Sequence record: NC_015933.1
Reading direction: 5' to 3' (one strand)
Source: Escherichia phage vB_EcoP_G7C
Length of the DNA: 64,000 bases
Shown: piece by piece, positions 583 to 25,172 of the stretch
Layout: every line of letters begins with the position of its first letter
How positions within the stretch are numbered: the first letter of the stretch is position 1
The notes under the pieces: generated by a model
Told to the model about the DNA's origin: nothing
Databases searched by the model: none
The model's input: the letters and a program-made list of their open reading frames with translations, nothing else
Translations under genes and position numbers: made by a program

Positions 583-909
583 ATGAAAACTTTAATTGCT
601 GTTGTTCTAGTAGCTCTATCAGTTCTGTCATTCGGTGCTCAAGCATCTAGTCGTGCAACCTTGTTGGAATCTGCTGCTGATTACAAAGCTAATAATGCAA
701 ACTTTGTGAATCAAGGTTACTTCATGGGCATGGTTACTATGGGTGTGGAAGCAGGAAAGAATTGTGTACCTGACGGTATAAAATTAGGGCACATTTTTGA
801 CAGAGTGGCATCTATTATTCTGTATGACCGAAAGGTTAATGCAGTAAAAGTACCATCAGACATGGTTCTGTTAGCGATTAATACAGCCTATCCCTGCGTT
901 AAATCTTAA
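583..909 (+). CDS. Secreted/periplasmic protein with N-terminal signal peptide (MKTLIAVVLVALSVLSFGAQA)
   Basis: Typical n-h-c signal peptide with AQA cleavage motif. Confidence 0.55.
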   Translation: MKTLIAVVLVALSVLSFGAQASSRATLLESAADYKANNANFVNQGYFMGMVTMGVEAGKNCVPDGIKLGHIFDRVASIILYDRKVNAVKVPSDMVLLAINTAYPCVKS

Positions 910-943
910 TTAGTAATTCCATTAACTTTAGGAGAGTAAGTAA

Positions 944-1996
944 ATGGCGAGCATTGACTCCTTGACTGTATGTAATACACGCCAAGCCCGTAACTTTATT
1001 ATCCGTGCCTTGCAAGCAGGTAACGTACCGTTCCTGACTTCATCACCAGGTATGGGTAAGTCTGCAATTATTCGTTCTATTGCAGAAGAATTTGGTATGA
1101 AGCTGATTGACCATCGTCTGTCTACTTCTGCCCCGGAAGACTTATCTGGTCTACCATTCCGTAATGGTGACCGTGCAGAGTTTATTCCATTTGCTGACTT
1201 ATTCCCTATCGAGGGTGACAAAGTACCGGATGGTTATAATGGCTGGCTCCTGTTCCTTGATGAGTTCAACTCAGCTAAGAAAGAAGTAGTGGCTGCTGCA
1301 TACAAACTAATTCTCGACCGCATGACCGGACAGAAAAAACTTCACCCTAATGTGATGATTATCTGTGCCGGTAACAAAGCTACTGACCGAGCCATAGTTA
1401 ACCCACTGGGTACTGCAATGCAGTCTCGTGTTGTCCACTTCGAAATGGAACTCGACTTCGACATCTTTGTTGAAGACGTAATGATTCCACAAGAATGGGA
1501 TGAGCGTCTGGTTGCATTCTTACATGCTAACCCTGGTTATCTGCATGACTTCGACCCCGCACATAAGAATAAAACATTCTGTTGCCCACGTACCTGGGAC
1601 TTTGTTAACAAAGACCTCAAGAACCGACCAGAAGGTGCTTTGCCTGATGAAGATTCTATCTACTATGCAGGCCACGTTACTGCTGGTAAAGCTACAGAGT
1701 TTGTTCAGTTCACTCAGGTATACAATCGTATGATTACGATTGAGAAGGTAGTAAAAGACCCGTTAGGCTGTGCACTACCGGAAGATAATAACCTGTGTTG
1801 GGCTACTGTTAACCATCTGGCTAACAAAACTACTGAAGATAACTTCGCTGATGTTCTTCAGTACATTGAACGCTTTAAAACGTTCACCCATAAGATTCTG
1901 TACTTCCGTACAGTAGGAAAAGCATTACCAGAAATTCAGGCTACCCCTGAATGGCGTAAGGCTGCTGCCAATATCTCTCGTTACATTCACGGATAA
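944..1996 (+). CDS. AAA+ ATPase, MoxR-like
   Basis: Walker A SSPGMGKS, Walker B LLFLDEFN, sensor-1 ICAGN; AGGAGA RBS 8 nt upstream of ATG. Confidence 0.85.
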   Translation: MASIDSLTVCNTRQARNFIIRALQAGNVPFLTSSPGMGKSAIIRSIAEEFGMKLIDHRLSTSAPEDLSGLPFRNGDRAEFIPFADLFPIEGDKVPDGYNGWLLFLDEFNSAKKEVVAAAYKLILDRMTGQKKLHPNVMIICAGNKATDRAIVNPLGTAMQSRVVHFEMELDFDIFVEDVMIPQEWDERLVAFLHANPGYLHDFDPAHKNKTFCCPRTWDFVNKDLKNRPEGALPDEDSIYYAGHVTAGKATEFVQFTQVYNRMITIEKVVKDPLGCALPEDNNLCWATVNHLANKTTEDNFADVLQYIERFKTFTHKILYFRTVGKALPEIQATPEWRKAAANISRYIHG

Positions 1997-1999
1997 ACT

Positions 2000-2476
2000 A
2001 TGAACTGGCATGAACTATTTGTTTATAGCAATGGTTCCCTTTACTGGAAAGTAAGTAGGGGCTGCGTAAAAGCAGGTGCCATTGCTGGTTGTTTGGATAA
2101 CAGCGGGTATTTGCGTGTTAAATGTAATAGAAAAAATCATTTAGTTCACCGCATAATTTATGAAATGGAAATTGGTCCAATTCCTGATGGTATGCAGGTA
2201 GACCATATTGACCACAATAGGCTAAATAATTACCCAAGTAATTTCCGTTTAGTAACAAACATGGTTAATAGTAAAAACCAAACCATGAGAGTAACAAATA
2301 CATCAGGTGTGACAGGAGTATACTGGCACACTCGGGATAAAATTTGGACTGCCCATATAAATGACAATGGTAAACAAATTTACTTAGGAAAATTTAACAG
2401 TAAACAAGAAGCCATTTCAGCCAGAAAGGAAGCAGAAAAATTATTGGGCTACCATATAAATCATGGGGAACCCTAA
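2000..2476 (+). CDS. HNH homing endonuclease with AP2 DNA-binding domain
   Basis: HNH core VDHIDHNRLNN; AP2-like GVTGVYWHTRDKIWTAHIN…GKFNSKQEAISARKEAE. Confidence 0.85.
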   Translation: MNWHELFVYSNGSLYWKVSRGCVKAGAIAGCLDNSGYLRVKCNRKNHLVHRIIYEMEIGPIPDGMQVDHIDHNRLNNYPSNFRLVTNMVNSKNQTMRVTNTSGVTGVYWHTRDKIWTAHINDNGKQIYLGKFNSKQEAISARKEAEKLLGYHINHGEP

Positions 2477-3651
2477 TGAATAGTATACCTACGCATACTC
2501 TCACTGATGAACGGTTAATGAGGGAGTACGATAGAATACAAGCGCAGGCATTTCTCGGACGTAGTGCAGCGTTTTTTGGTTCATTGCTGTGTAGTCTTAA
2601 GTTCTCATGGAAACGTGAGGGCTGTCCCACTGCATGTACCGACGGGATAGAACTCCATTTCAACCCAGACTTCTTTATCTGGATGTGTCCTGATGCAAGG
2701 GAAACAGTGCTAATGCACGAACTTTGGCATGTGGCATATCTGCATGGAATCCGTTGTGGAAGCCGTGATCCAGAAGTCTGGAACCAGGCATGTGACCACT
2801 TCATTAACCTTCAGTTAGAGGAAGATGGTTACAAGTTCACTGGTATCGACAAAGGCATTTGCAAAGACCCTCAATATAAAGGATGGGTCGAAGAAGACAT
2901 CTACGATGACCTGATGAAGAACCCTCAGAAAAGGCAGAAGCCGTCGGGGGGAGCTGGAGCAGGTCTTGCTGGCGACATGAAAGCTCCCTCTTCGGGGCAG
3001 TCCCAGGGTGCTGTTGTCAACAACGTAGTACGTGCAATACAAAGCCAGAAGATGGCTGGTGGAACGATGCCCGGTAAAGGTGCTGGTCGTATGGAAGAGG
3101 TTATTACCCAATTCCTTAAACCAGTGGTTCCGTGGCAGGAAGTCCTGATGAACTTCTTTACCGACATTGATGATACGCATTATACGTGGGCCAGACCCAA
3201 CCGTCGTTTCACTGACGTCTATCTACCTTCTCTGGAAGATGATGAAGGACGTTTACGACACTTAGCCTATTTTGAGGATGTATCCGGTTCTATTAGTAGT
3301 GCTGACTCTCTGCGTTTTAACTCAGAGGTTGCCTACGTTAAGAGCCAGTTCAATCCTAAGAAGATGACCCTAATTACCTTCGACGATATTATCCAAGAAG
3401 AAATAGACATCACTGAAGAAGATACTTTTGAAGAGATTAAGATTACTGGACGAGGGGGTACAAACCTTGAACCAGTGCGTGAATGGATTATTAAGAATAA
3501 GCCAACCGCTGCAATCATATTCTCTGATATGTATGTTCGCCCTATGGAAGATTTACCATTTGATATTCCTATCATCTGGTGTGTTCTGAATAATCCTAAT
3601 GCTACCGTACCTTTTGGGGAGGTAGTTCATATCCCTAAAGGAATGAAATAA
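2476..3651 (+). CDS. VWA-domain protein with N-terminal HExxH metallopeptidase-like domain (partner of the MoxR-like ATPase)
   Basis: HELWH zinc-binding-type motif near N-terminus; MIDAS-like DVSGS; start overlaps HNH stop (TAATG). Confidence 0.8.
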   Translation: MNSIPTHTLTDERLMREYDRIQAQAFLGRSAAFFGSLLCSLKFSWKREGCPTACTDGIELHFNPDFFIWMCPDARETVLMHELWHVAYLHGIRCGSRDPEVWNQACDHFINLQLEEDGYKFTGIDKGICKDPQYKGWVEEDIYDDLMKNPQKRQKPSGGAGAGLAGDMKAPSSGQSQGAVVNNVVRAIQSQKMAGGTMPGKGAGRMEEVITQFLKPVVPWQEVLMNFFTDIDDTHYTWARPNRRFTDVYLPSLEDDEGRLRHLAYFEDVSGSISSADSLRFNSEVAYVKSQFNPKKMTLITFDDIIQEEIDITEEDTFEEIKITGRGGTNLEPVREWIIKNKPTAAIIFSDMYVRPMEDLPFDIPIIWCVLNNPNATVPFGEVVHIPKGMK

Positions 3652-4157
3652 TGATTGTTAATGGTAATTCTCTATACCGTTCATCTCAATTGCTGGATGT
3701 CCCAGACCGTAAGGTATCCGAGCATGGTGTAAGCTATGGATTAGGTGAAGCTGGTTATGATATTCGTATCAAACAAGACATTACCTTCTATCGCTTATTT
3801 GGGTTAATTCCAATGGTGAAAATCGTCGATGGAAAACAAGTATCACGCCATCTCGGTAAATTCGCATTAGCTTCAGCAATTGAGAAGTTCAACATGTCAC
3901 CCTCGTGTGTAGCTATCGTTCACGATAAGTCCACATGGGCAAGACGTGCATTATCTGTGTTCAATACCGTAATAGAACCAGGATGGAAAGGGTATCTTAC
4001 CCTTGAACTGGTCTATCACGGTCGTAAGAAACTGCATATCCCGGCTGGTGCTGGGATAGCTCAAGTATTATTTCATCTGGTTCAAGAGCCTGCTAATTAC
4101 AACGGCAAGTATCAGAATCAGGAGGACAAACCAGTAGCTGCAAGAAGCAGTAAATAA
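3651..4157 (+). CDS. dcd: dCTP deaminase / dUTPase-fold enzyme
   Basis: dUTPase-superfamily motif IEPGWKGYLTLEL; 168 aa, size typical of dCTP deaminase. Confidence 0.65.
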   Translation: MIVNGNSLYRSSQLLDVPDRKVSEHGVSYGLGEAGYDIRIKQDITFYRLFGLIPMVKIVDGKQVSRHLGKFALASAIEKFNMSPSCVAIVHDKSTWARRALSVFNTVIEPGWKGYLTLELVYHGRKKLHIPAGAGIAQVLFHLVQEPANYNGKYQNQEDKPVAARSSK

Positions 4158-4166
4158 GGAAACAAC

Positions 4167-4367
4167 ATGTCTGTATTTCAAGTAACTCCTGTTGATAGTA
4201 CCCAACGTAAAACTATTGTTGCAACTAATGTAGTAGATGTAGATGAAACCCCAGCTGGTGCTGTAATCCATCTGATTGATGGGCGAACTGTAACTGTAAA
4301 AGAAAGCTATCGTTCAGTACGTGGTTACGTCCGTAAAGCTTTAGCTGCTGTCTCTGATGCAGAGTAA
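4167..4367 (+). CDS. Hypothetical protein
   Basis: ORF with AAGGAAA RBS. Confidence 0.5.
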   Translation: MSVFQVTPVDSTQRKTIVATNVVDVDETPAGAVIHLIDGRTVTVKESYRSVRGYVRKALAAVSDAE

Positions 4368-4440
4368 GTAGCTGCCTAAATAGCCCAACTATGCTGGGCT
4401 ATTTGTGAAGAAACTAACTCAACCTCACATAGGAACCATC

Positions 4441-4701
4441 ATGGAATCTTTAGCAGCAATCCTCGTTCTGTTATTTGCACTTGCTATATACCTTATCCCT
4501 ACTATTATTGCTTTTGCACGAGGCCATGCCTCTAAGTGGGGCATTGGTATACTCAATATCGTATTAGGCTGGTCTTTAGTCTTCTGGGTAGTAGCACTGA
4601 TTTGGTCACTGTCTAACAAAGGGCAGTCTCAGACTACAATCGTTAACGTTGGCAGTGGTAACCAGTACAACGTGTCTCAAACGAGCCAGTCTGATAAGTA
4701 A
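4441..4701 (+). CDS. Small membrane protein (two TM helices)
   Basis: ATG at 4441 with AGGAAC RBS (ORF-track start 4405 is GTG); hydrophobic helices LAAILVLLFALAIYLIPTIIAF and GIGILNIVLGWSLVFWVVALIW. Confidence 0.55.
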   Translation: MESLAAILVLLFALAIYLIPTIIAFARGHASKWGIGILNIVLGWSLVFWVVALIWSLSNKGQSQTTIVNVGSGNQYNVSQTSQSDK

Positions 4702-4775
4702 CTAACCTAAGCATCATTGTATAGTGGTGCTTGTGGAAGTTGCTTCCAGCTCATTACTTATCCATCTCCTAATCC

Positions 4776-4803
4776 AAGCCCACCTAACCCGTGGGCTTTT
4801 TTT
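4776..4803 (+). terminator. Rho-independent terminator
   Basis: Stem AAGCCCAC/GTGGGCTT with T7 run. Confidence 0.7.
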
Positions 4804-4824
4804 AATTATAGGTAGTAAATACTA

Positions 4825-5268
4825 ATGCGTATCCCATTCCTAAGAAAAAGGGAACGGAATCCTGTTCTTTATAATAAAGGCATAGAGGATGAGTATGAAC
4901 TCAACCGTAAGGCCCGTTCCTACGCAGCAAAATTATTCATGGGGACTAGCAACCCTAATAGATTACTGGACTTTGTTTTCGAACAAGTCTTTATCATATA
5001 CAGCTTAGCTATGTCTGCTGGTTCACAAGAAGTAAGTGATAAGGCAAGATATGCTCTCTGTATGCTCCGGAAAGAGTATGAAGCCCTCCTGTATGAAGAC
5101 TTGTACTCCTTTAAGAAAGAAACCGCTGTAGCGTGTTCTGTGGCTCTTACTGAAGGTATAGCAGTATTACAAGAACTACCTCGTAGTGAGTTTAAGCTGG
5201 TATATGCCCAGGCCAGGAGAATTACAGAAAACCGAAGTGGTATTACCAACTATCTAAGGTCATTCTAA
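4825..5268 (+). CDS. Hypothetical protein
   Basis: ORF track; coupled to thyX by TAATG overlap. Confidence 0.55.
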   Translation: MRIPFLRKRERNPVLYNKGIEDEYELNRKARSYAAKLFMGTSNPNRLLDFVFEQVFIIYSLAMSAGSQEVSDKARYALCMLRKEYEALLYEDLYSFKKETAVACSVALTEGIAVLQELPRSEFKLVYAQARRITENRSGITNYLRSF

Positions 5269-6212
5269 TGATTAAGGCAACTGTCATTGCAGATTCCGTT
5301 CATCATGTAACGGGTACTCGTATTACTACCTTTGAATTGGTTTATCCTCGATTCATTCACAGTGAGTTTATGACCCACCGTGTATTCAACCGAAATGCTT
5401 CAAGTAGTCGTGCTATCCCTACTTCTAAGTTCATAGAACAGGTTCGTAATGAACCAGTGATGCCAAGTCACTGGGGCAAGAACCAGAAAGGTATGCAGGC
5501 ATTTGAAGAATTGTCTGAAGACCAACGTAGTGATGCAACCTTTATCTGGGAACAGGCTGCATCCAGTGCTGCTACCTATGCAGAAATGCTTCGTCGTGGA
5601 CAAGTACATAAGCAGATTGTTAACCGTATTCTGGAACCATTTACGCATATCCGTGTAGTGGTAACTTCAACTAGCTGGGCTAATTTCTATGGCTTACGTG
5701 ACCATGAAGATGCTCAACCAGAGATTCGTGAACTGGCTCAAGCAATGCGTAAGGCTCATAATGAAAGTGTTCCATCTAAGCTGTCCCAAGGTGTGTGGCA
5801 TCTGCCTTATATTCGCAAGATTGATTGTATTAACGCTTACGATCATTGCAAACATCAACGAGTTACTTGTGATAAACCAAGTGATGAAGAAGTTTTAGGC
5901 TTACTGCTTAAAGTCTCTGCTGCTCGCTGTGCACGTGCCTCCTATAACAACTTTGAAGGCAAGCCATCTACTATTAGTGATGACCTTGCCCTCTTTGCTA
6001 AGTTGGTAGAGAAACAACCAATTCATGCGTCACCTACTGAGCATCAAGCTACCCCGATGGACTTCAGTACCAAGTTTGTTAACAACCAGAACCCATTAAC
6101 CTGGGAACAAGGTGTTACCTCTATGGACCGTGAAGGTAAGCTGTACTCAGGCAACTTACTGGATTTCATCCAATTCCGTAAACTAATACCCGGAGAAACA
6201 ATTACAGAATGA
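5268..6212 (+). CDS. thyX: Flavin-dependent thymidylate synthase (ThyX-like, divergent)
   Basis: ThyX-like HR…S…S.R signature in MTHRVFNRNASSSRAIP and C-terminal DAQPEIRELAQAM resembling the ThyX HAQWEIR region. Confidence 0.65.
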   Translation: MIKATVIADSVHHVTGTRITTFELVYPRFIHSEFMTHRVFNRNASSSRAIPTSKFIEQVRNEPVMPSHWGKNQKGMQAFEELSEDQRSDATFIWEQAASSAATYAEMLRRGQVHKQIVNRILEPFTHIRVVVTSTSWANFYGLRDHEDAQPEIRELAQAMRKAHNESVPSKLSQGVWHLPYIRKIDCINAYDHCKHQRVTCDKPSDEEVLGLLLKVSAARCARASYNNFEGKPSTISDDLALFAKLVEKQPIHASPTEHQATPMDFSTKFVNNQNPLTWEQGVTSMDREGKLYSGNLLDFIQFRKLIPGETITE

Positions 6213-6445
6213 AACGTTTAGCTATCCAAGCTCTATTTATAAGTATCATCCTGGTTCTGGAATTTGTATTTGCACTACATGGTGCACAGAGCCTGGAAGA
6301 GATGTTCTTCGTAGTAGCCCGTTTCTCTGCGTGTGTTCTTGGCTTGTGGTGTGTGTATTACTATGCACGAGATTACGCAGCCATTAAGGAACATGATGAT
6401 GCTAAGGAACGTCTACGACAATTCGTAGAAGAGAATCGTAAGTAA
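6209..6445 (+). CDS. Small membrane protein
   Basis: Two hydrophobic segments; ATGA overlap with thyX stop; followed by terminator. Confidence 0.5.
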   Translation: MKRLAIQALFISIILVLEFVFALHGAQSLEEMFFVVARFSACVLGLWCVYYYARDYAAIKEHDDAKERLRQFVEENRK

Positions 6446-6450
6446 ACCTA

Positions 6451-6476
6451 AGACCTCCTCCGGGAGGTCTTTTTTT
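6451..6476 (+). terminator. Rho-independent terminator
   Basis: Stem AGACCTCC/GGAGGTCT, TCCG loop, T6 run; same stem family as terminator at 157-186. Confidence 0.7.
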
Positions 6477-6504
6477 GGTTTCAATTACTGTCCCAGGAGG
6501 ACTT

Positions 6505-6729
6505 ATGGCAAGTTGGTACGCAACTATGTTGGAGAAAGATTCCAATGGACTATGCAGGGAATCCGTCGGTAGTTTTAAAAACATCTGTATAGATGGGCGT
6601 TTATGCATGATTAACGCAATAGATATTGCAGAAGAAACCCTGTCTAAAGAGTCAGGTTATGCAGGGTTTAAGCTGGAAAAACTTAATAGAGCCTGGGATT
6701 ACAGAAATCCTTTTATTTATAAAAATTAA
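6505..6729 (+). CDS. Hypothetical protein
   Basis: ATG at 6505 preceded by CAGGAGGA RBS (ORF-track start 6475 lacks RBS). Confidence 0.4.
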   Translation: MASWYATMLEKDSNGLCRESVGSFKNICIDGRLCMINAIDIAEETLSKESGYAGFKLEKLNRAWDYRNPFIYKN

Positions 6730-6738
6730 GGAAACAGT

Positions 6739-6951
6739 ATGCCTGCTAAATACCGTATCAAAGACACTCCACTAATGTGTGAGGGTGAGAAGGGTGACAT
6801 TGTATATGCCTGTATACAGGATGATTTCAATGCTGCTCTGATGTTAACCCAAATGACAAATACACTGCATGTATCAGTAACACTGGACCCTACCGGGGAC
6901 TATCCATGCTTCCCTATCCCTGCTCATAACCTGGAGCAAATCCGTGATTAA
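6739..6951 (+). CDS. Hypothetical protein
   Basis: ORF with AAGGAAACAG RBS. Confidence 0.45.
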   Translation: MPAKYRIKDTPLMCEGEKGDIVYACIQDDFNAALMLTQMTNTLHVSVTLDPTGDYPCFPIPAHNLEQIRD

Positions 6952-7258
6952 TCCTGAAGTTATTCATAGTAAAACTGGTAAGGCTGTACCACTTAGTGAT
7001 ATTGCAGTTACTGGTGATATTGCTGCTTGCCCAGCTAATATCGCCTCCCTATGTATGTGCATTGCTGCACTAGCAGAAGAACGTAAATTATGGCTGGAAC
7101 CAAGCAAAGAAATGGTACTGGCTGGCATGTCTGAACTGAATGCACTTCTGAAAGAAATGTATGACGAGGATGGACAATTAGTTGAGCCAACTGATGATCA
7201 GATTTCGGATGCTGTAGTATTCGTCCTTCAAGCAATGGCAGGTAAACGCAATGATTGA
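6944..7258 (+). CDS. Hypothetical protein
   Basis: GTG start overlapping upstream stop; ORF track. Confidence 0.4.
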   Translation: MINPEVIHSKTGKAVPLSDIAVTGDIAACPANIASLCMCIAALAEERKLWLEPSKEMVLAGMSELNALLKEMYDEDGQLVEPTDDQISDAVVFVLQAMAGKRND

Positions 7259-7391
7259 AGTATTCATCTATTTCATGGCTCTACCCTACATACTTAATGA
7301 GTTATTGGGTACATACGGTACAGCCGTAGGCATTTCTGTAGTTGTATTCAGTCTTTTCCTATAAGCAACATTTAAACTGGAGAGTAAATAA

Positions 7392-9956
7392 ATGTTAGTC
7401 GCAGATACCAATCAATCAGCCACTTCAGCGACACTGGGTGGCAAAGAAGCAATCGCTTTTGCCATCTCAGATGACCCGGCATTCTTTCATGTATTAAGTA
7501 CCTCCTTGTATAACAACCCTACTCTGGCAGTAGTCCGTGAGACTATCTGTAACAGTTGGGATGCTCATATTGAAGCAGGTAAGACTGATACTCCTATCCG
7601 TATTACTATTGATACAGACAATTTTATTACCTTCCGTGACTTCGGTAATGGGATACCAGATGAACTCATTGGTTCCATTTATGGTGTCTACGGTGCATCT
7701 ACCAAGAAGTCCAACAGTAGTGTTACTGGTGGCTTTGGTTTGGGATGTAAATCCCCATTCGCTTATACAGATAGCTTCCAGGTTACTTCATGGAACCAGG
7801 GAAAGATGTCAGTATATAACGTAGCTAAGGCTGCGATTGAGAATGATGGTAAACCGGGTATTGTTCCTATTGTTACTGGTATTCCTACTGAGGAATCTGG
7901 TCTGGAAGTTAAATTCCAGCTAGGTAAACATGATGTGAATACCTTTGTACATTACATCACGTCAATTGTATTTAACGGTGAGATTAAGGCTGAGCTTAGT
8001 ATTCCCAAACTTGTTCGTGAAGAAACAGGTAATAGTATTCAGCAGGGTAACTATACTCTACTGAATACGCTAGGTATGTCATTTGAACCAGGTTCATATG
8101 ATATGTCTGATAAATGGTATCAAGGCTATATGGGTAACAGCACCATCTTTGTTCGCTACGGTAACGTAATGTACCCAATAGTATCTAGCCCGGCTAGTGA
8201 AGAGGCTGTAGGTCTTATTCTCAACTTCATGAATATCATTGGAGCTGATAATTTAGTAGTTCAGGCTGCACCAGATACCTTAGCTATTGCCCCTAGTCGT
8301 GAAACGCTGTCTAACCAGAAGTTAACCGACGATGGTATTACTGCTCTATGCGTAGATTTAGTAGACCGTATGGAGAAAGAGATTAAGGCTAAGATTCCTG
8401 AAGCTATTAAGCAGGTTGAAGAATATGCCTCCCAATCTTCTACTCGTGACTGGGAATATCCTGCTTTCTTAAGTGCTGTTACAGACAGAACTGTTCAACG
8501 CTATATGTCCTCTAGTTTGTGGGCTAAGCAGCGTAAACATCATGTTAAGCACTGGCGTAATCTATCCAATAAGGCATTACTAGCTCGCCCTGAATATGCA
8601 GGGCTTAAAAAACTGTATAGTAAGGCTATGCGTGCTCTTAAGTGTACGCGTGAAGATAAAACATACTATCAATTCCAGGATTTAGTATATCGGCATCTGC
8701 ACTTACCTCAGCTTGCTGCTTTAAAAGCTACAGGTATTAAGTGGTCTGGTTACATAATGAACCAGGGTAGCAGTGTTGGCCTGGTAACAGGTAAACTTAC
8801 TGACTACTTTAAGATGGGCTATAACAGCCATTTGGGTATCGGTATATTCACTACCAAGAACGTTGTAGTTACAAGACGTTTATCTGACTGTGCAGACTCT
8901 TTTTCATACTTCCCTGATTACACCCAAGGTGATCTGAAGCGTACAGCTTTTGTTCACGTCGTTGGTCCTAAGAAAGGAGAAGCAGAAAAAGCTGTAGCTA
9001 AGTTCTCTGCTATGGGTTATCGGGTAATTGACCTTACTCAATACAATGAGTGGGACAAGCCAACTAACTTCCGCAGGGAACAGGCTAAGATAGCTGCTGA
9101 GAAGCGTGCTAAGACAATAGCTGCCAATAAAACCAAAGCAGGGGGTAAAACTAATGCACTGGTTTCATTGAATGCAGTACTTGGTACTACCCCTGTACGA
9201 GATAAAAGCGGTGATTTGGTATCTAAACCATACATTGACAAGGATTTTGCTGACCCAAGATTCCATGAGGAACCTAGATTCGTTGAGGTGGATCTGCCTA
9301 AGTACTACGTACCAGCCAGTCAGGTTGTTTCTGGTAGACCAGCAACTGCCAAGATTGGAACCATGTGGAAATGGTATGAATTATCCGATGAGATGAAAGC
9401 AGAAACTGTTGTCTGTCGTAATCAAATCGAAGTTAACAAAGCCAAACGTCGTGGTGCTATTCACATTGACGATATTCGTCTTAATGAATTGATGTCTGTT
9501 ATTACCAGCAAGGGATTCAAGAAGTACGCCACTGAACAACGTAACGGTGTTCTTGAGTATCTTGATTTAAATGACAAAGAATACTGTGAAATCCTCGACA
9601 TTCTTGGACTAACATTCAAACCATTACAGAGTCTGGTTCTTAAACCAGAGTACGAATGGGCATGTGACTTCCTAAGAAATCATTCAAGTAACAAAGATAA
9701 ACTGGTTGAGATGGGCCTCATTAAGTCAGTAGATGACTTGGAACCATATGTAAGGATGGTTAATCCTCGTATGCATAAGTATTTCAAAGTACTTAACGAG
9801 TACAAAGGGTTATTTAGATATAGCTGGAATGATAATGACATCCTGCAAAGCCTGGATTTGAGTAGATTAATCAAACATCTCAAGAAAAATCCAGAGGATA
9901 TTCCTGGGTTTAAGCCCCTCTACCGTAATCGTTTAAATAAACTGAAAGGTAAATAA
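7392..9956 (+). CDS. rIIA: rIIA-like protein with N-terminal GHKL/HATPase-type ATPase domain
   Basis: GHKL N-box/G-box-like motifs (NSWDAHIEAG…RDFGNGIP…GGFGLG); 854 aa; GGAGAG RBS. Confidence 0.65.
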   Translation: MLVADTNQSATSATLGGKEAIAFAISDDPAFFHVLSTSLYNNPTLAVVRETICNSWDAHIEAGKTDTPIRITIDTDNFITFRDFGNGIPDELIGSIYGVYGASTKKSNSSVTGGFGLGCKSPFAYTDSFQVTSWNQGKMSVYNVAKAAIENDGKPGIVPIVTGIPTEESGLEVKFQLGKHDVNTFVHYITSIVFNGEIKAELSIPKLVREETGNSIQQGNYTLLNTLGMSFEPGSYDMSDKWYQGYMGNSTIFVRYGNVMYPIVSSPASEEAVGLILNFMNIIGADNLVVQAAPDTLAIAPSRETLSNQKLTDDGITALCVDLVDRMEKEIKAKIPEAIKQVEEYASQSSTRDWEYPAFLSAVTDRTVQRYMSSSLWAKQRKHHVKHWRNLSNKALLARPEYAGLKKLYSKAMRALKCTREDKTYYQFQDLVYRHLHLPQLAALKATGIKWSGYIMNQGSSVGLVTGKLTDYFKMGYNSHLGIGIFTTKNVVVTRRLSDCADSFSYFPDYTQGDLKRTAFVHVVGPKKGEAEKAVAKFSAMGYRVIDLTQYNEWDKPTNFRREQAKIAAEKRAKTIAANKTKAGGKTNALVSLNAVLGTTPVRDKSGDLVSKPYIDKDFADPRFHEEPRFVEVDLPKYYVPASQVVSGRPATAKIGTMWKWYELSDEMKAETVVCRNQIEVNKAKRRGAIHIDDIRLNELMSVITSKGFKKYATEQRNGVLEYLDLNDKEYCEILDILGLTFKPLQSLVLKPEYEWACDFLRNHSSNKDKLVEMGLIKSVDDLEPYVRMVNPRMHKYFKVLNEYKGLFRYSWNDNDILQSLDLSRLIKHLKKNPEDIPGFKPLYRNRLNKLKGK

Positions 9957-18160: not shown

Positions 18161-18658
18161 ATGAAACAGAGGATTGCCCATGACAGGCTTTTACAGCTTG
18201 TTAGTTATGACCCTATTTCCGGAATTTTTACTCGTAGGAATACCGGAAAGGTATCCGGTTACCTAATGAAGAGTGGTTACGTTCAACTCCGTGTGGATAG
18301 TGTGTTGTACTATGGGCATATCCTTGCATGGTTCTATGTGCATGGCGTATGGCCTACGGATAGGATTGACCATAAGGACAATATACGCCATCACAACTGG
18401 ATAGATAACCTCAGAGAAGCGACCCACAAGCAGAATAACCAGAGTGCTGTTTTATCTAAAACAAACACATCTGGGTTTAAGGGTGTCTCCTTTTCAAAGA
18501 ATATGGGTAAGTACAGAGCAACTATTTGGGTTAATAGCAAACCAATTACATTAGGTTACACAGATAACCCAATAGAGGCTGCTGTTCTCTACGATGAAGC
18601 TGCTGTAACTCATTATGGTGAGTTTGCCAAAACCAACAAACAATTAGGACTGTTATGA
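18161..18658 (+). CDS. HNH homing endonuclease with AP2 domain
   Basis: HNH-type RIDHKDNIRHHNWIDNL; AP2-like GFKGVSFSKNMGKYRATIWVN…LGYTDNPIEAAVLYDEAA. Confidence 0.8.
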   Translation: MKQRIAHDRLLQLVSYDPISGIFTRRNTGKVSGYLMKSGYVQLRVDSVLYYGHILAWFYVHGVWPTDRIDHKDNIRHHNWIDNLREATHKQNNQSAVLSKTNTSGFKGVSFSKNMGKYRATIWVNSKPITLGYTDNPIEAAVLYDEAAVTHYGEFAKTNKQLGLL

Positions 18659-24674: not shown

Positions 24675-25172
24675 ATGAGCAAGCCATTAGGATACTGGAA
24701 TAAACCTGCCCATGAACTCGCTGTAGTACATTCTCCCGATGATGCCAATGCAAAGGATGGATACATCAGTATTAAACGTCATGGGGTGAGGGTATTTCTG
24801 CACAACTGGATTTGGGAATACTATAATGGACCAATCCCGGATGGGTATGAAGTTGACCACATCAATGGAATCCCAACTGATTGTCGACTTATTAATATGA
24901 GACTGGTGTCCCATATGATTAACTGTCGCAATCGTCGCAAAAGAATTGACAATACATCCGGCGCTACCGGTGTGTATAGACAATGGAAGAAGACTAATGA
25001 ATATTGGACTGCTGCTTGGAATGACCCGCATACAGGTAAGCTACGAACTAAAAGCTTCAACATTGGTGTTCTTGGGGATAGCGAAGCCAAAGATGCTGCT
25101 ATAGCATACCGGGCTACTATAGAAGCAGACCTGGTAAAGAATCACAACTACACCTTACGCCATGGAAGATAA
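24675..25172 (+). CDS. HNH homing endonuclease with AP2 domain
   Basis: HNH-type VDHINGIPTDCRLINMRLVSHMINCRN; AP2-like GATGVYRQWKKTNEYWTAAWNDPHTGKLRTKSF. Confidence 0.8.
   Translation: MSKPLGYWNKPAHELAVVHSPDDANAKDGYISIKRHGVRVFLHNWIWEYYNGPIPDGYEVDHINGIPTDCRLINMRLVSHMINCRNRRKRIDNTSGATGVYRQWKKTNEYWTAAWNDPHTGKLRTKSFNIGVLGDSEAKDAAIAYRATIEADLVKNHNYTLRHGR

Follow-up and report, generated by a model that had tools for sequence, protein, structure and literature searches.

A predicted homing-endonuclease gene inserted between the genes of a conserved, probably MoxR-type ATPase and its zincin-like VWA partner in Escherichia phage vB_EcoP_G7C

The window analyzed here is a 64,000-nucleotide (nt) stretch of Escherichia phage vB_EcoP_G7C (sequence record NC_015933.1), in which three consecutive open reading frames (ORFs) encode an AAA+ ATPase orthologous to gp24 of phage N4, a free-standing HNH protein, and the orthologue of N4 gp25, which joins a zincin-like domain to a VWA domain (Table 1). 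The start of a dCTP deaminase gene overlaps the gp25 stop, making it the next gene of the same apparent transcription unit. A sigma-70 promoter and terminator scan stayed at background level, with no plus-strand terminator-like site across positions 944 to 4157. The annotation of phage PhAPEC7 labels the two large genes as N4 gp24 (ATPase) and gp25 (VWA-like) homologues and has them between the RNA polymerase II genes and those for dCTP deaminase and ThyX; the order in N4 is identical. The 14 core genes of N4-like phages include gp24 ("unknown") and gp25 ("vWFA domain"), both described as middle transcripts (PMC4193335); an earlier paper lists gp24 as a putative AAA ATPase and gp25 as a vWFA protein of unknown function (PMC2784036). 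A megablast search with window positions 600 to 4200 returned 62 phage records at ~92% nucleotide identity, nearly all from Escherichia, Shigella, and Klebsiella phages of the genus Gamaleyavirus (Schitoviridae, N4-like), the genus to which we assign the window.

Table 1. Features of the gp24-HNH-gp25 locus, in window coordinates (aa, amino acids; MIDAS, metal ion-dependent adhesion site).
Feature	Position	Strand	Remarks
N4 gp24 orthologue, AAA+ ATPase	944..1996	+	350 aa; AAA+ core ~residues 1-170, then 180-residue all-helical C-terminal domain
Walker A (P-loop), SSPGMGKS	1040..1063	+	Variant with Ser in place of the first Gly of GxxxxGK[ST]
HRLSTSAPEDLSGLP motif after strand beta-2	1112..1156	+	Aligns with midasin "INLSDQTDLMDLFG"
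Walker B, LLFLDE	1247..1264	+	Conserved in homologues
Sensor-1 AGN (N144) through A-M-Q-S-R motif	1367..1429	+	AGN itself at 1367-1375
Spacer ACT, gp24 stop to HNH start	1997..1999	+	TAA-ACT-ATG; HNH-less relatives have 7-nt TCACAAC before gp25
Predicted free-standing homing-endonuclease gene	2000..2476	+	158 aa; HNH_3, AP2-like; present/absent polymorphism
HNH_3 catalytic domain	2141..2272	+	Pfam 9.2e-18, profile positions 2-45 of 46
AP2-like DNA-binding domain	2303..2413	+	Pfam 6.5e-7, 30.0 bits (cutoff 33.3)
N4 gp25 orthologue	2476..3651	+	391 aa; zincin-like ~2524-3234, flexible Gly/Ser-rich linker, VWA ~3262-3633
42-nt diagnostic tract, gp25 5' end (nt 7-48)	2482..2523	+	All 9 class-separating alignment columns
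HELWH (H81, E82, H85), then H90 and D107	2716..2796	+	HELWH at 2716-2730; putative zinc site and catalytic Glu
MIDAS: D268-x-S270-x-S272 (DVSGS), T329, D351	3277..3528	+	DVSGS at 3277-3291, T329 at 3460-3462, D351 at 3526-3528
dCTP deaminase, N4 gp26 homologue	3651..4157	+	Pfam DCD 3e-16

Comparison with relatives lacking the HNH gene locates its insertion point to the nucleotide. In PhAPEC7, Bas96, PW8, U1G, and NAN33P5, gp24 ends in GGATAA and, after the spacer TCACAAC, gp25 begins with ATGAAC CAG ATA CCT, its product starting MNQIPQH (PhAPEC7-type junction: ...GGATAATCACAACATGAACCAGATACCTCAGCACACACTTAGTGATGAACAACTC...). HNH carriers read GGATAA, spacer, ATGAAC TGG on the upstream side of the HNH gene and TA ATGAAY AGY/AAC ATA CC on the downstream side. 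The insert is 477 bp long and directly follows the ATGAAC with which gp25 originally began, so that the endonuclease uses the former ribosome-binding site and start region of gp25. At the downstream junction, the HNH stop codon TAA and the gp25 ATG share the A at 2476 (TAATG), and gp25 is apparently re-initiated through this overlap, so that the pair stays intact and is apparently co-translated. The encoded protein retains the catalytic DH...N...N motif (DHIDHN...N...N) and also matches PHROG 99 (3e-63) and the PADLOC "homing endonuclease" models (2e-10). A first-pass annotation, made by reading this DNA without database searches, had described a free-standing AP2-HNH gene that splits the pair, with overlapping stop and start codons on both sides. 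The insertion is borne out by the clean junctions seen against PhAPEC7 and other HNH-less relatives. The remainder needs amendment: the codons overlap downstream only, the upstream boundary being a 3-nt spacer; the HNH_3 domain precedes the AP2-like domain, which falls below its Pfam cutoff; and "split" overstates the situation of two intact, apparently co-translated genes with an HNH gene between them.

The distribution and divergence of the HNH gene are those of a mobile element. It occupies this site in ~10 of the 62 records (four UE phages at 92% nucleotide identity, Mimir124 at 74%, Bp4, PD38, and Uz-1 at 66%, and Moonfish) and is absent from ~50; none of 76 diverse loci from IMG/VR has it at this position. 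Its GC content is 36.5%, compared with 44 to 45% in the flanks. The ratio of nonsynonymous to synonymous substitution rates (dN/dS) against the UE-M6 allele is 0.095, which indicates purifying selection, and against the Mimir124 allele synonymous sites are saturated, while dS in the flanking genes is only 0.2 to 0.4. Over the first 50 nt of gp25, carriers and noncarriers share 68% identity, in comparison to 97% among noncarriers; all comparisons give 90 to 98% past 100 nt of gp25 and over the final 50 nt of gp24. Every alignment column that separates the two classes falls in the 42-nt tract at the 5' end of gp25, with none in the remaining 1128 nt of gp25 or over the final 500 nt of gp24. This tract is likely an endonuclease recognition/immunity site or a co-conversion tract, and the flank pattern is that expected of a homing endonuclease whose recognition site would lie at the gp25 start in empty alleles. 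We conclude that the HNH gene is most probably a selfish free-standing homing-endonuclease gene, and that the arrangement is of a familiar type.

The Seg and Mob proteins of T4 are free-standing homing endonucleases of a virulent phage. Like these, and like HNH-AP2 proteins and HNH nickases of the I-HmuI type, the gene described here is a small intergenic ORF that combines an HNH domain with a putative DNA-binding domain, and it shares with free-standing homing endonucleases a patchy presence, a high AT content, and divergence beside the insertion point. It differs in re-using the start region of the downstream gene, which is restored by TAATG coupling; its target and cleavage are predicted. 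SegB has been described as a phage homing endonuclease (PMC13096335).

Homing elements appear to accumulate in this region. U1G and NAN33P5 each carry an 882-nt insert in gp24 exactly between L105 and D106 of Walker B (window 1258/1259), NAN33P5 a second of ~860 nt near the invariant CPRTW motif (window ~1590), and PW8 an 873-nt insert at the EDLSG motif (window ~1141 to 1147); in the relatives' loci, the inserts lie at 2160 to 3041 of L002, 960 to 1841 and ~2176 to 3035 of L007, and 557 to 1429 of L006. Each encodes an HNH ORF 31 to 32% identical to the window's HNH protein, and in a permissive Rfam search they gave full-length, sub-threshold matches to group I intron models (E values of 7e-7, 0.069, and 3e-4). 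At the gathering threshold, neither the window nor four related loci gave an Rfam match, and the window's gp24 has no intron. In Bas96, an HNH gene follows that of dCTP deaminase. Targeting of the most conserved codons of gp24 would fit an essential gene. Elsewhere in the window, two plus-strand ORFs of 165 aa (18161 to 18658 and 24675 to 25172) resemble the HNH protein (30 and 37% identity; tblastn 7e-9 and 1e-17), and the genome therefore has at least three HNH_3-type endonuclease genes. Two other identities considered for the HNH gene were rejected: a terminase-associated packaging factor, since the terminase is far away and the gene is polymorphic, and part of an intron or intein, since its position is intergenic and both flanking ORFs are complete.

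For gp24, conserved residues and the closest matches point to one branch of the AAA+ ATPases. K39, D106-E107, N144, and R162 are invariant across 31 aligned homologues with identities as low as 50%, and K39, D106, N144, and R162 are conserved in ~140 to 158 homologues down to ~25% identity; R162 is a candidate arginine finger or sensor, R149 being less conserved. The HRLSTSAPEDLSGLP segment, located in the helix-2-insert region typical of AAA_3/AAA_5 ATPases, is conserved in the 31-homologue alignment, with D66 and G69 invariant. The structural model of gp24 has a 42-residue insert between beta-2 and beta-3, of which residues 61 to 80 are poorly modelled (pLDDT 51 to 55), and short strands at 127 to 133 before beta-4. 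Among Pfam families, generic AAA alone reaches its cutoff with the window's ATPase (28.4 bits); an orthologue from the bacterium Telmatobacter passes for AAA_5 (27.7 bits) and scores 25.6 bits for AAA_3, whose cutoff is 27. In a sequence search of the PDB, the only solved structures matched were midasin AAA modules (3.4e-5), and a profile search brought no gain over this single-sequence match. The best structural and sequence matches of gp24 are dynein, midasin, CbbQ, and NorQ. Because of the invariant residues, the midasin alignment, and the Telmatobacter AAA_5 pass, we place gp24 in the dynein/midasin/MoxR (AAA_5) clade, by a small margin over other clades.

In gp25, Pfam recognizes DUF2201_N, "putative metallopeptidase" (1.3e-54), and DUF2201, "VWA-like" (2.9e-34). 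Conservation was followed through 31 close and 158 more distant homologues, down to ~25% identity: H81, E82, H85, H90, and D107 are near-universal, H90 and D107 being conserved candidate third metal ligands, and the full MIDAS (D268, S270, S272, T329, and D351) is invariant. The gp25 model places HExxH on a helix (residues 72 to 87) that follows a three-strand sheet and D107 on the next long helix, so that the N-terminal domain, as modelled, has the secondary-structure order of a zincin. The VWA fold was retrieved by whole-model structure searches, which the VWA domain dominated; single-sequence and profile searches of the PDB with gp25 gave nothing significant. Homologues of gp25, including N4 gp25 in RefSeq, are widely annotated as "HNH endonuclease," and PHROG 1314 bears the same label. 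Since gp25 has zincin-like and VWA domains and no HNH domain, this looks like a propagated mis-annotation. In rV5-like Escherichia phages, a homologue of the zincin-like half alone (residues 23 to 244, 24% identity) is annotated "putative metallopeptidase" or "anti-sigma factor." NCBIfam gave no match for the ATPase, the HNH protein, or gp25. Apart from the homing-endonuclease models, PADLOC returned a generic AAA match only (DolB, 0.002), which gives the module no apparent link to a known defence system.

The two large genes travel together well beyond N4-like phages. Profiles of both proteins were run on loci fetched around gp25 relatives, and among loci with enough flank 67 of 69 bacterial and 76 of 76 viral (IMG/VR) ones had a gp24-like ATPase gene upstream in the same orientation. 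The ATPase gene of bacterial loci either adjoins the gp25 relative or is separated from it by one ~300-aa gene with no Pfam match. Overall, the operon occurs in at least 585 bacterial species representatives, 690 phage records, and 93 plasmids, 30 of which are conjugative; on the MOBH/MPF_T conjugative plasmid pMBR02 of Burkholderia, genes for the ATPase, an intervening protein, and the zincin-VWA protein (4888 to 8158) lie directly upstream of a VirB-type type IV secretion system (T4SS) operon. RaK2-like jumbo phages have the pair, annotated gp24-like and gp25-like. Among 147 ORFs neighbouring the bacterial loci, the top Pfam families were Sipho_Gp157 (12), RNase H (7), and Mom (3), accompanied by ParB, RadC, DUF3150, DUF4942, PD-(D/E)XK proteins, and helicases; these are prophage and mobile-element contexts, not capsid or tail clusters. 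The first-pass annotation had proposed a MoxR-class ATPase with Walker A, Walker B, and sensor-1 motifs, followed by a partner with HELWH and DxSGS motifs as the usual MoxR-VWA pair. The motifs of both proteins were located at verified coordinates, those of the partner are conserved in ~158 homologues, and the linkage counts sustain the pairing. Neither of the outcomes it had named as contrary was found: structure search retrieved a VWA fold in the partner, and the ATPase, with its midasin match and Telmatobacter AAA_5 pass, did not group with another AAA+ clade. Its statement that the role is not established also holds: PMC4193335 lists gp24 and gp25 as core genes of unknown function, and the sole account, in PMC7824862, is a computational proposal for the jumbo-phage homologues.

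Taken together, we read gp24-gp25 as a core module of N4-like phages, a MIDAS-targeted processing machine, with a selfish homing HNH gene lodged between its two genes, and assign this reading a probability of roughly 0.7. A MoxR/AAA_5-type ATPase, gp24 would presumably form a hexameric ATP-driven ring on which gp25 docks as its adaptor. By analogy with the MIDAS of CbbO, NorD, and midasin, that of gp25 would capture an acidic residue of a protein substrate, which the N-terminal HExxH zincin-like domain would most likely cleave; the pair would thus be an ATP-driven, MIDAS-targeted machine for both remodelling and processing. Because of the position of the genes, their reported middle-gene timing, and their neighbours, a nonvirion target tied to replication or host takeover is weakly favoured over virion maturation. 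During co-infection, HNH-less relatives would be nicked or cut by the HNH enzyme within or close to the first ~50 nt of gp25, and they would acquire the HNH gene when repair draws on the HNH-positive genome (intronless homing); the 42-nt tract would protect the HNH-positive genome itself.

Several points count against this reading. The window's ATPase scores 17.8 bits for AAA_5, under the Pfam cutoff of 22, and RFC, HslU, and Clp folds lie just 1 to 2 Z units below its best structural matches. Structure searches with gp25 did not separate a peptidase fold, so that "zincin" denotes the Pfam family and motif conservation. We infer the oligomeric state of gp24, its contact with gp25, and proteolysis, and the searched literature yielded no experiments on gp24 or gp25 and no functional study of DUF2201, the Schitoviridae vWFA protein, or the N4-like MoxR protein. 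The AP2 domain of the HNH protein is sub-threshold, its cleavage activity and target are predictions, and the 42-nt tract could stem from linkage (shared flank ancestry) in place of immunity. Other accounts of the HNH gene were weighed. Its product might belong to the module as a third protein, a nuclease that the ATPase and its VWA partner recruit as an effector, as its close packing, translational coupling, and purifying selection could suggest, together with the presence of an HNH gene between both genes in the Acinetobacter baumannii element pRBH2-3. We give this almost no credence: the gene is missing from ~50 of 62 close relatives and, at this position, from all 76 IMG/VR loci, its GC content is 8 points under that of the flanks, its alleles are much more diverged than their surroundings, and similar HNH genes sit at other sites of the region and elsewhere in the window. 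It is also unlikely, if less so, that the tract and the HNH gene mark one old insertion, inherited vertically or by ordinary recombination, with an endonuclease that is inactive or no longer homing. The Bp4 and Moonfish copies, frameshifted or truncated in appearance, would suit that history, and cleavage is itself a prediction; the idea sits poorly with the dN/dS of 0.095 and intact catalytic motif of the window/UE allele, and HNH-positive flanks form no separate lineage, between-class identity past 100 nt being equal to within-class identity.

For the pair itself, the strongest competitor is a virion-assembly chaperone or protease, with structural or ejected proteins to fold or process; Iyer et al. 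(2021) proposed such a role for the homologous MoxR and metallopeptidase-vWA pair of group 2.2 jumbo phages (PMC7824862). The MoxR/VWA proteins of the Acidianus two-tailed virus, for which a role of this kind is reported, are cited as a precedent in PMC7824862 and PMC7159879, and the pair belongs to the universal core set of N4-like phages alongside structural genes. We consider such a role possible but on balance doubtful, since the genes lie in the middle region beside those for dCTP deaminase, ThyX, and RNA polymerase II and have been classed as middle transcripts, conjugative plasmids carry homologous operons next to T4SS genes, and the commonest bacterial neighbours are Sipho_Gp157, RNase H, Mom, ParB, and RadC rather than capsid or tail genes. 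Very improbable, in our estimation, is a replication-type ATPase (clamp-loader/RFC-like or of some other clade) whose adjacency to a VWA gene is coincidental. A weak PHROG match to "clamp loader" (4e-6), the sub-threshold AAA_5 score, and the replication-gene neighbourhood are outweighed by best matches to dynein, midasin, CbbQ, and NorQ, an EDLSG-type motif after beta-2 like the TxxDLxG-type motif of midasin, an orthologue over the AAA_5 cutoff and close to that of AAA_3, and a VWA pairing kept in 143 of 145 loci. Our preferred reading, a MIDAS-targeted processing machine, could be widened: as a speculative extension, more doubtful than probable, the module may be a MIDAS-guided AAA+ protease that virulent N4-like phages share with jumbo phages, prophage-like elements, and conjugative plasmids, a general machine for mobile-element establishment as opposed to a chaperone of virion assembly. 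If so, it would act on a host- or element-encoded nonvirion protein during establishment or replication of incoming DNA.

The classification of the pair as a MoxR ATPase with a metallopeptidase-vWA partner matches the published computational view, and the arrangement is already known. In group 2.2 jumbo phages, the pair has been described as a MoxR AAA+ ATPase and a vWA cochaperone fused to an N-terminal metallopeptidase, with a proposed function in virion assembly and processing by analogy with the Acidianus two-tailed virus (Iyer et al. 2021, PMC7824862). RaK2-like phages have the same two-gene layout, ATPase first and metallopeptidase-vWA fusion second; they are distant (gp25 24% identical by tblastn, 3e-12), 350-kb myoviruses with no HNH gene between the two, and in either group a role in virion assembly or processing is a proposal. 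Among the nearest named systems is N4 itself, where the orthologues stand in the same order (RNA polymerase II genes, gp24-gp25, dCTP deaminase, ThyX) and gp25 is 60.6% identical in amino acids over 98% of its length; the N4 genes are separated by a 153- to 167-nt gap with a small conserved ORF, in contrast to the 477-bp HNH gene of the window. The cellular pairs CbbQ-CbbO, NorQ-NorD, RavA-ViaA, and CoxD-CoxE, and midasin, show just 13 to 15% identity. In comparison with cellular MoxR-VWA pairs, gp25 adds a zincin-like domain and has a minimal (~125-aa), C-terminal VWA domain, and gp24 stands apart by the Ser-for-Gly change in Walker A and by its long, helical C-terminal domain. Also virus-encoded as a couple are the MoxR-type ATPase p618 and VWA protein p892 of the Acidianus two-tailed virus, cited in PMC7159879 and PMC7824862; that pair differs in belonging to an archaeal virus, in having no peptidase domain, and in its role in extracellular tail growth.

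All members of the N4-like family, which is widely employed in phage therapy work, share ~14 genes, and gp24 and gp25 are two of these. Nothing about the present locus is new in category; what it supplies is a testable, predicted 42-nt target/immunity site and an example from nature in which insertions are tolerated by the pair only where both ORFs and their coupling are preserved, which is consistent with an essential, co-expressed two-protein machine.

Spacing between the two genes varies in other Schitoviridae as well: of 76 loci, 43 have an interval of 0 to 60 nt, 22 of 150 to 375 nt, and 11 of more than 440 nt, and small ORFs are common in it. N4 (locus L172, ~2330 to 2498) and several other Schitoviridae (L106, L108, and L115) have a conserved ORF of ~60 to 70 aa at this place, with the motif ...SLAAAKQ.A.E.F.PKK..., which is not at that position in Gamaleyaviruses. 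In bacteria and plasmids, the module often comprises three genes, for the ATPase, a ~300-aa protein without Pfam match, and the zincin-VWA protein. The 75-kb A. baumannii record pRBH2-3, deposited as a plasmid, appears to be the genome of an N4-like phage, to judge by its genes for an N4-type RNA polymerase, an AAA ATPase, and a VWA-like protein; between the latter two it has five small ORFs, one of which encodes an HNH endonuclease. Contig2 (727 kb) of Mesorhizobium yinganensis has gp24-like, gp25-like (45% identity), and dCTP deaminase genes in N4 order at 2854 to 5688, adjoining chorismate synthase, and may hold an integrated or remnant N4-like element. A 69-kb contig of the metagenome-assembled genome "archaeon isolate PL23a_bin.95" encodes a gp25 78% identical to that of the window, with gp24 adjacent, and is almost certainly a Gamaleyavirus-like phage contig misbinned to an archaeal genome. 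Upstream of gp24, window positions 583 to 909 (plus strand) encode a protein of 108 aa that has a signal-peptide-like N-terminus and weakly matches Rap1a/Tai4 (19.5 bits; cutoff 27.7), a family of type VI amidase immunity proteins; copies in relatives are annotated Tai4 or Rap1a.

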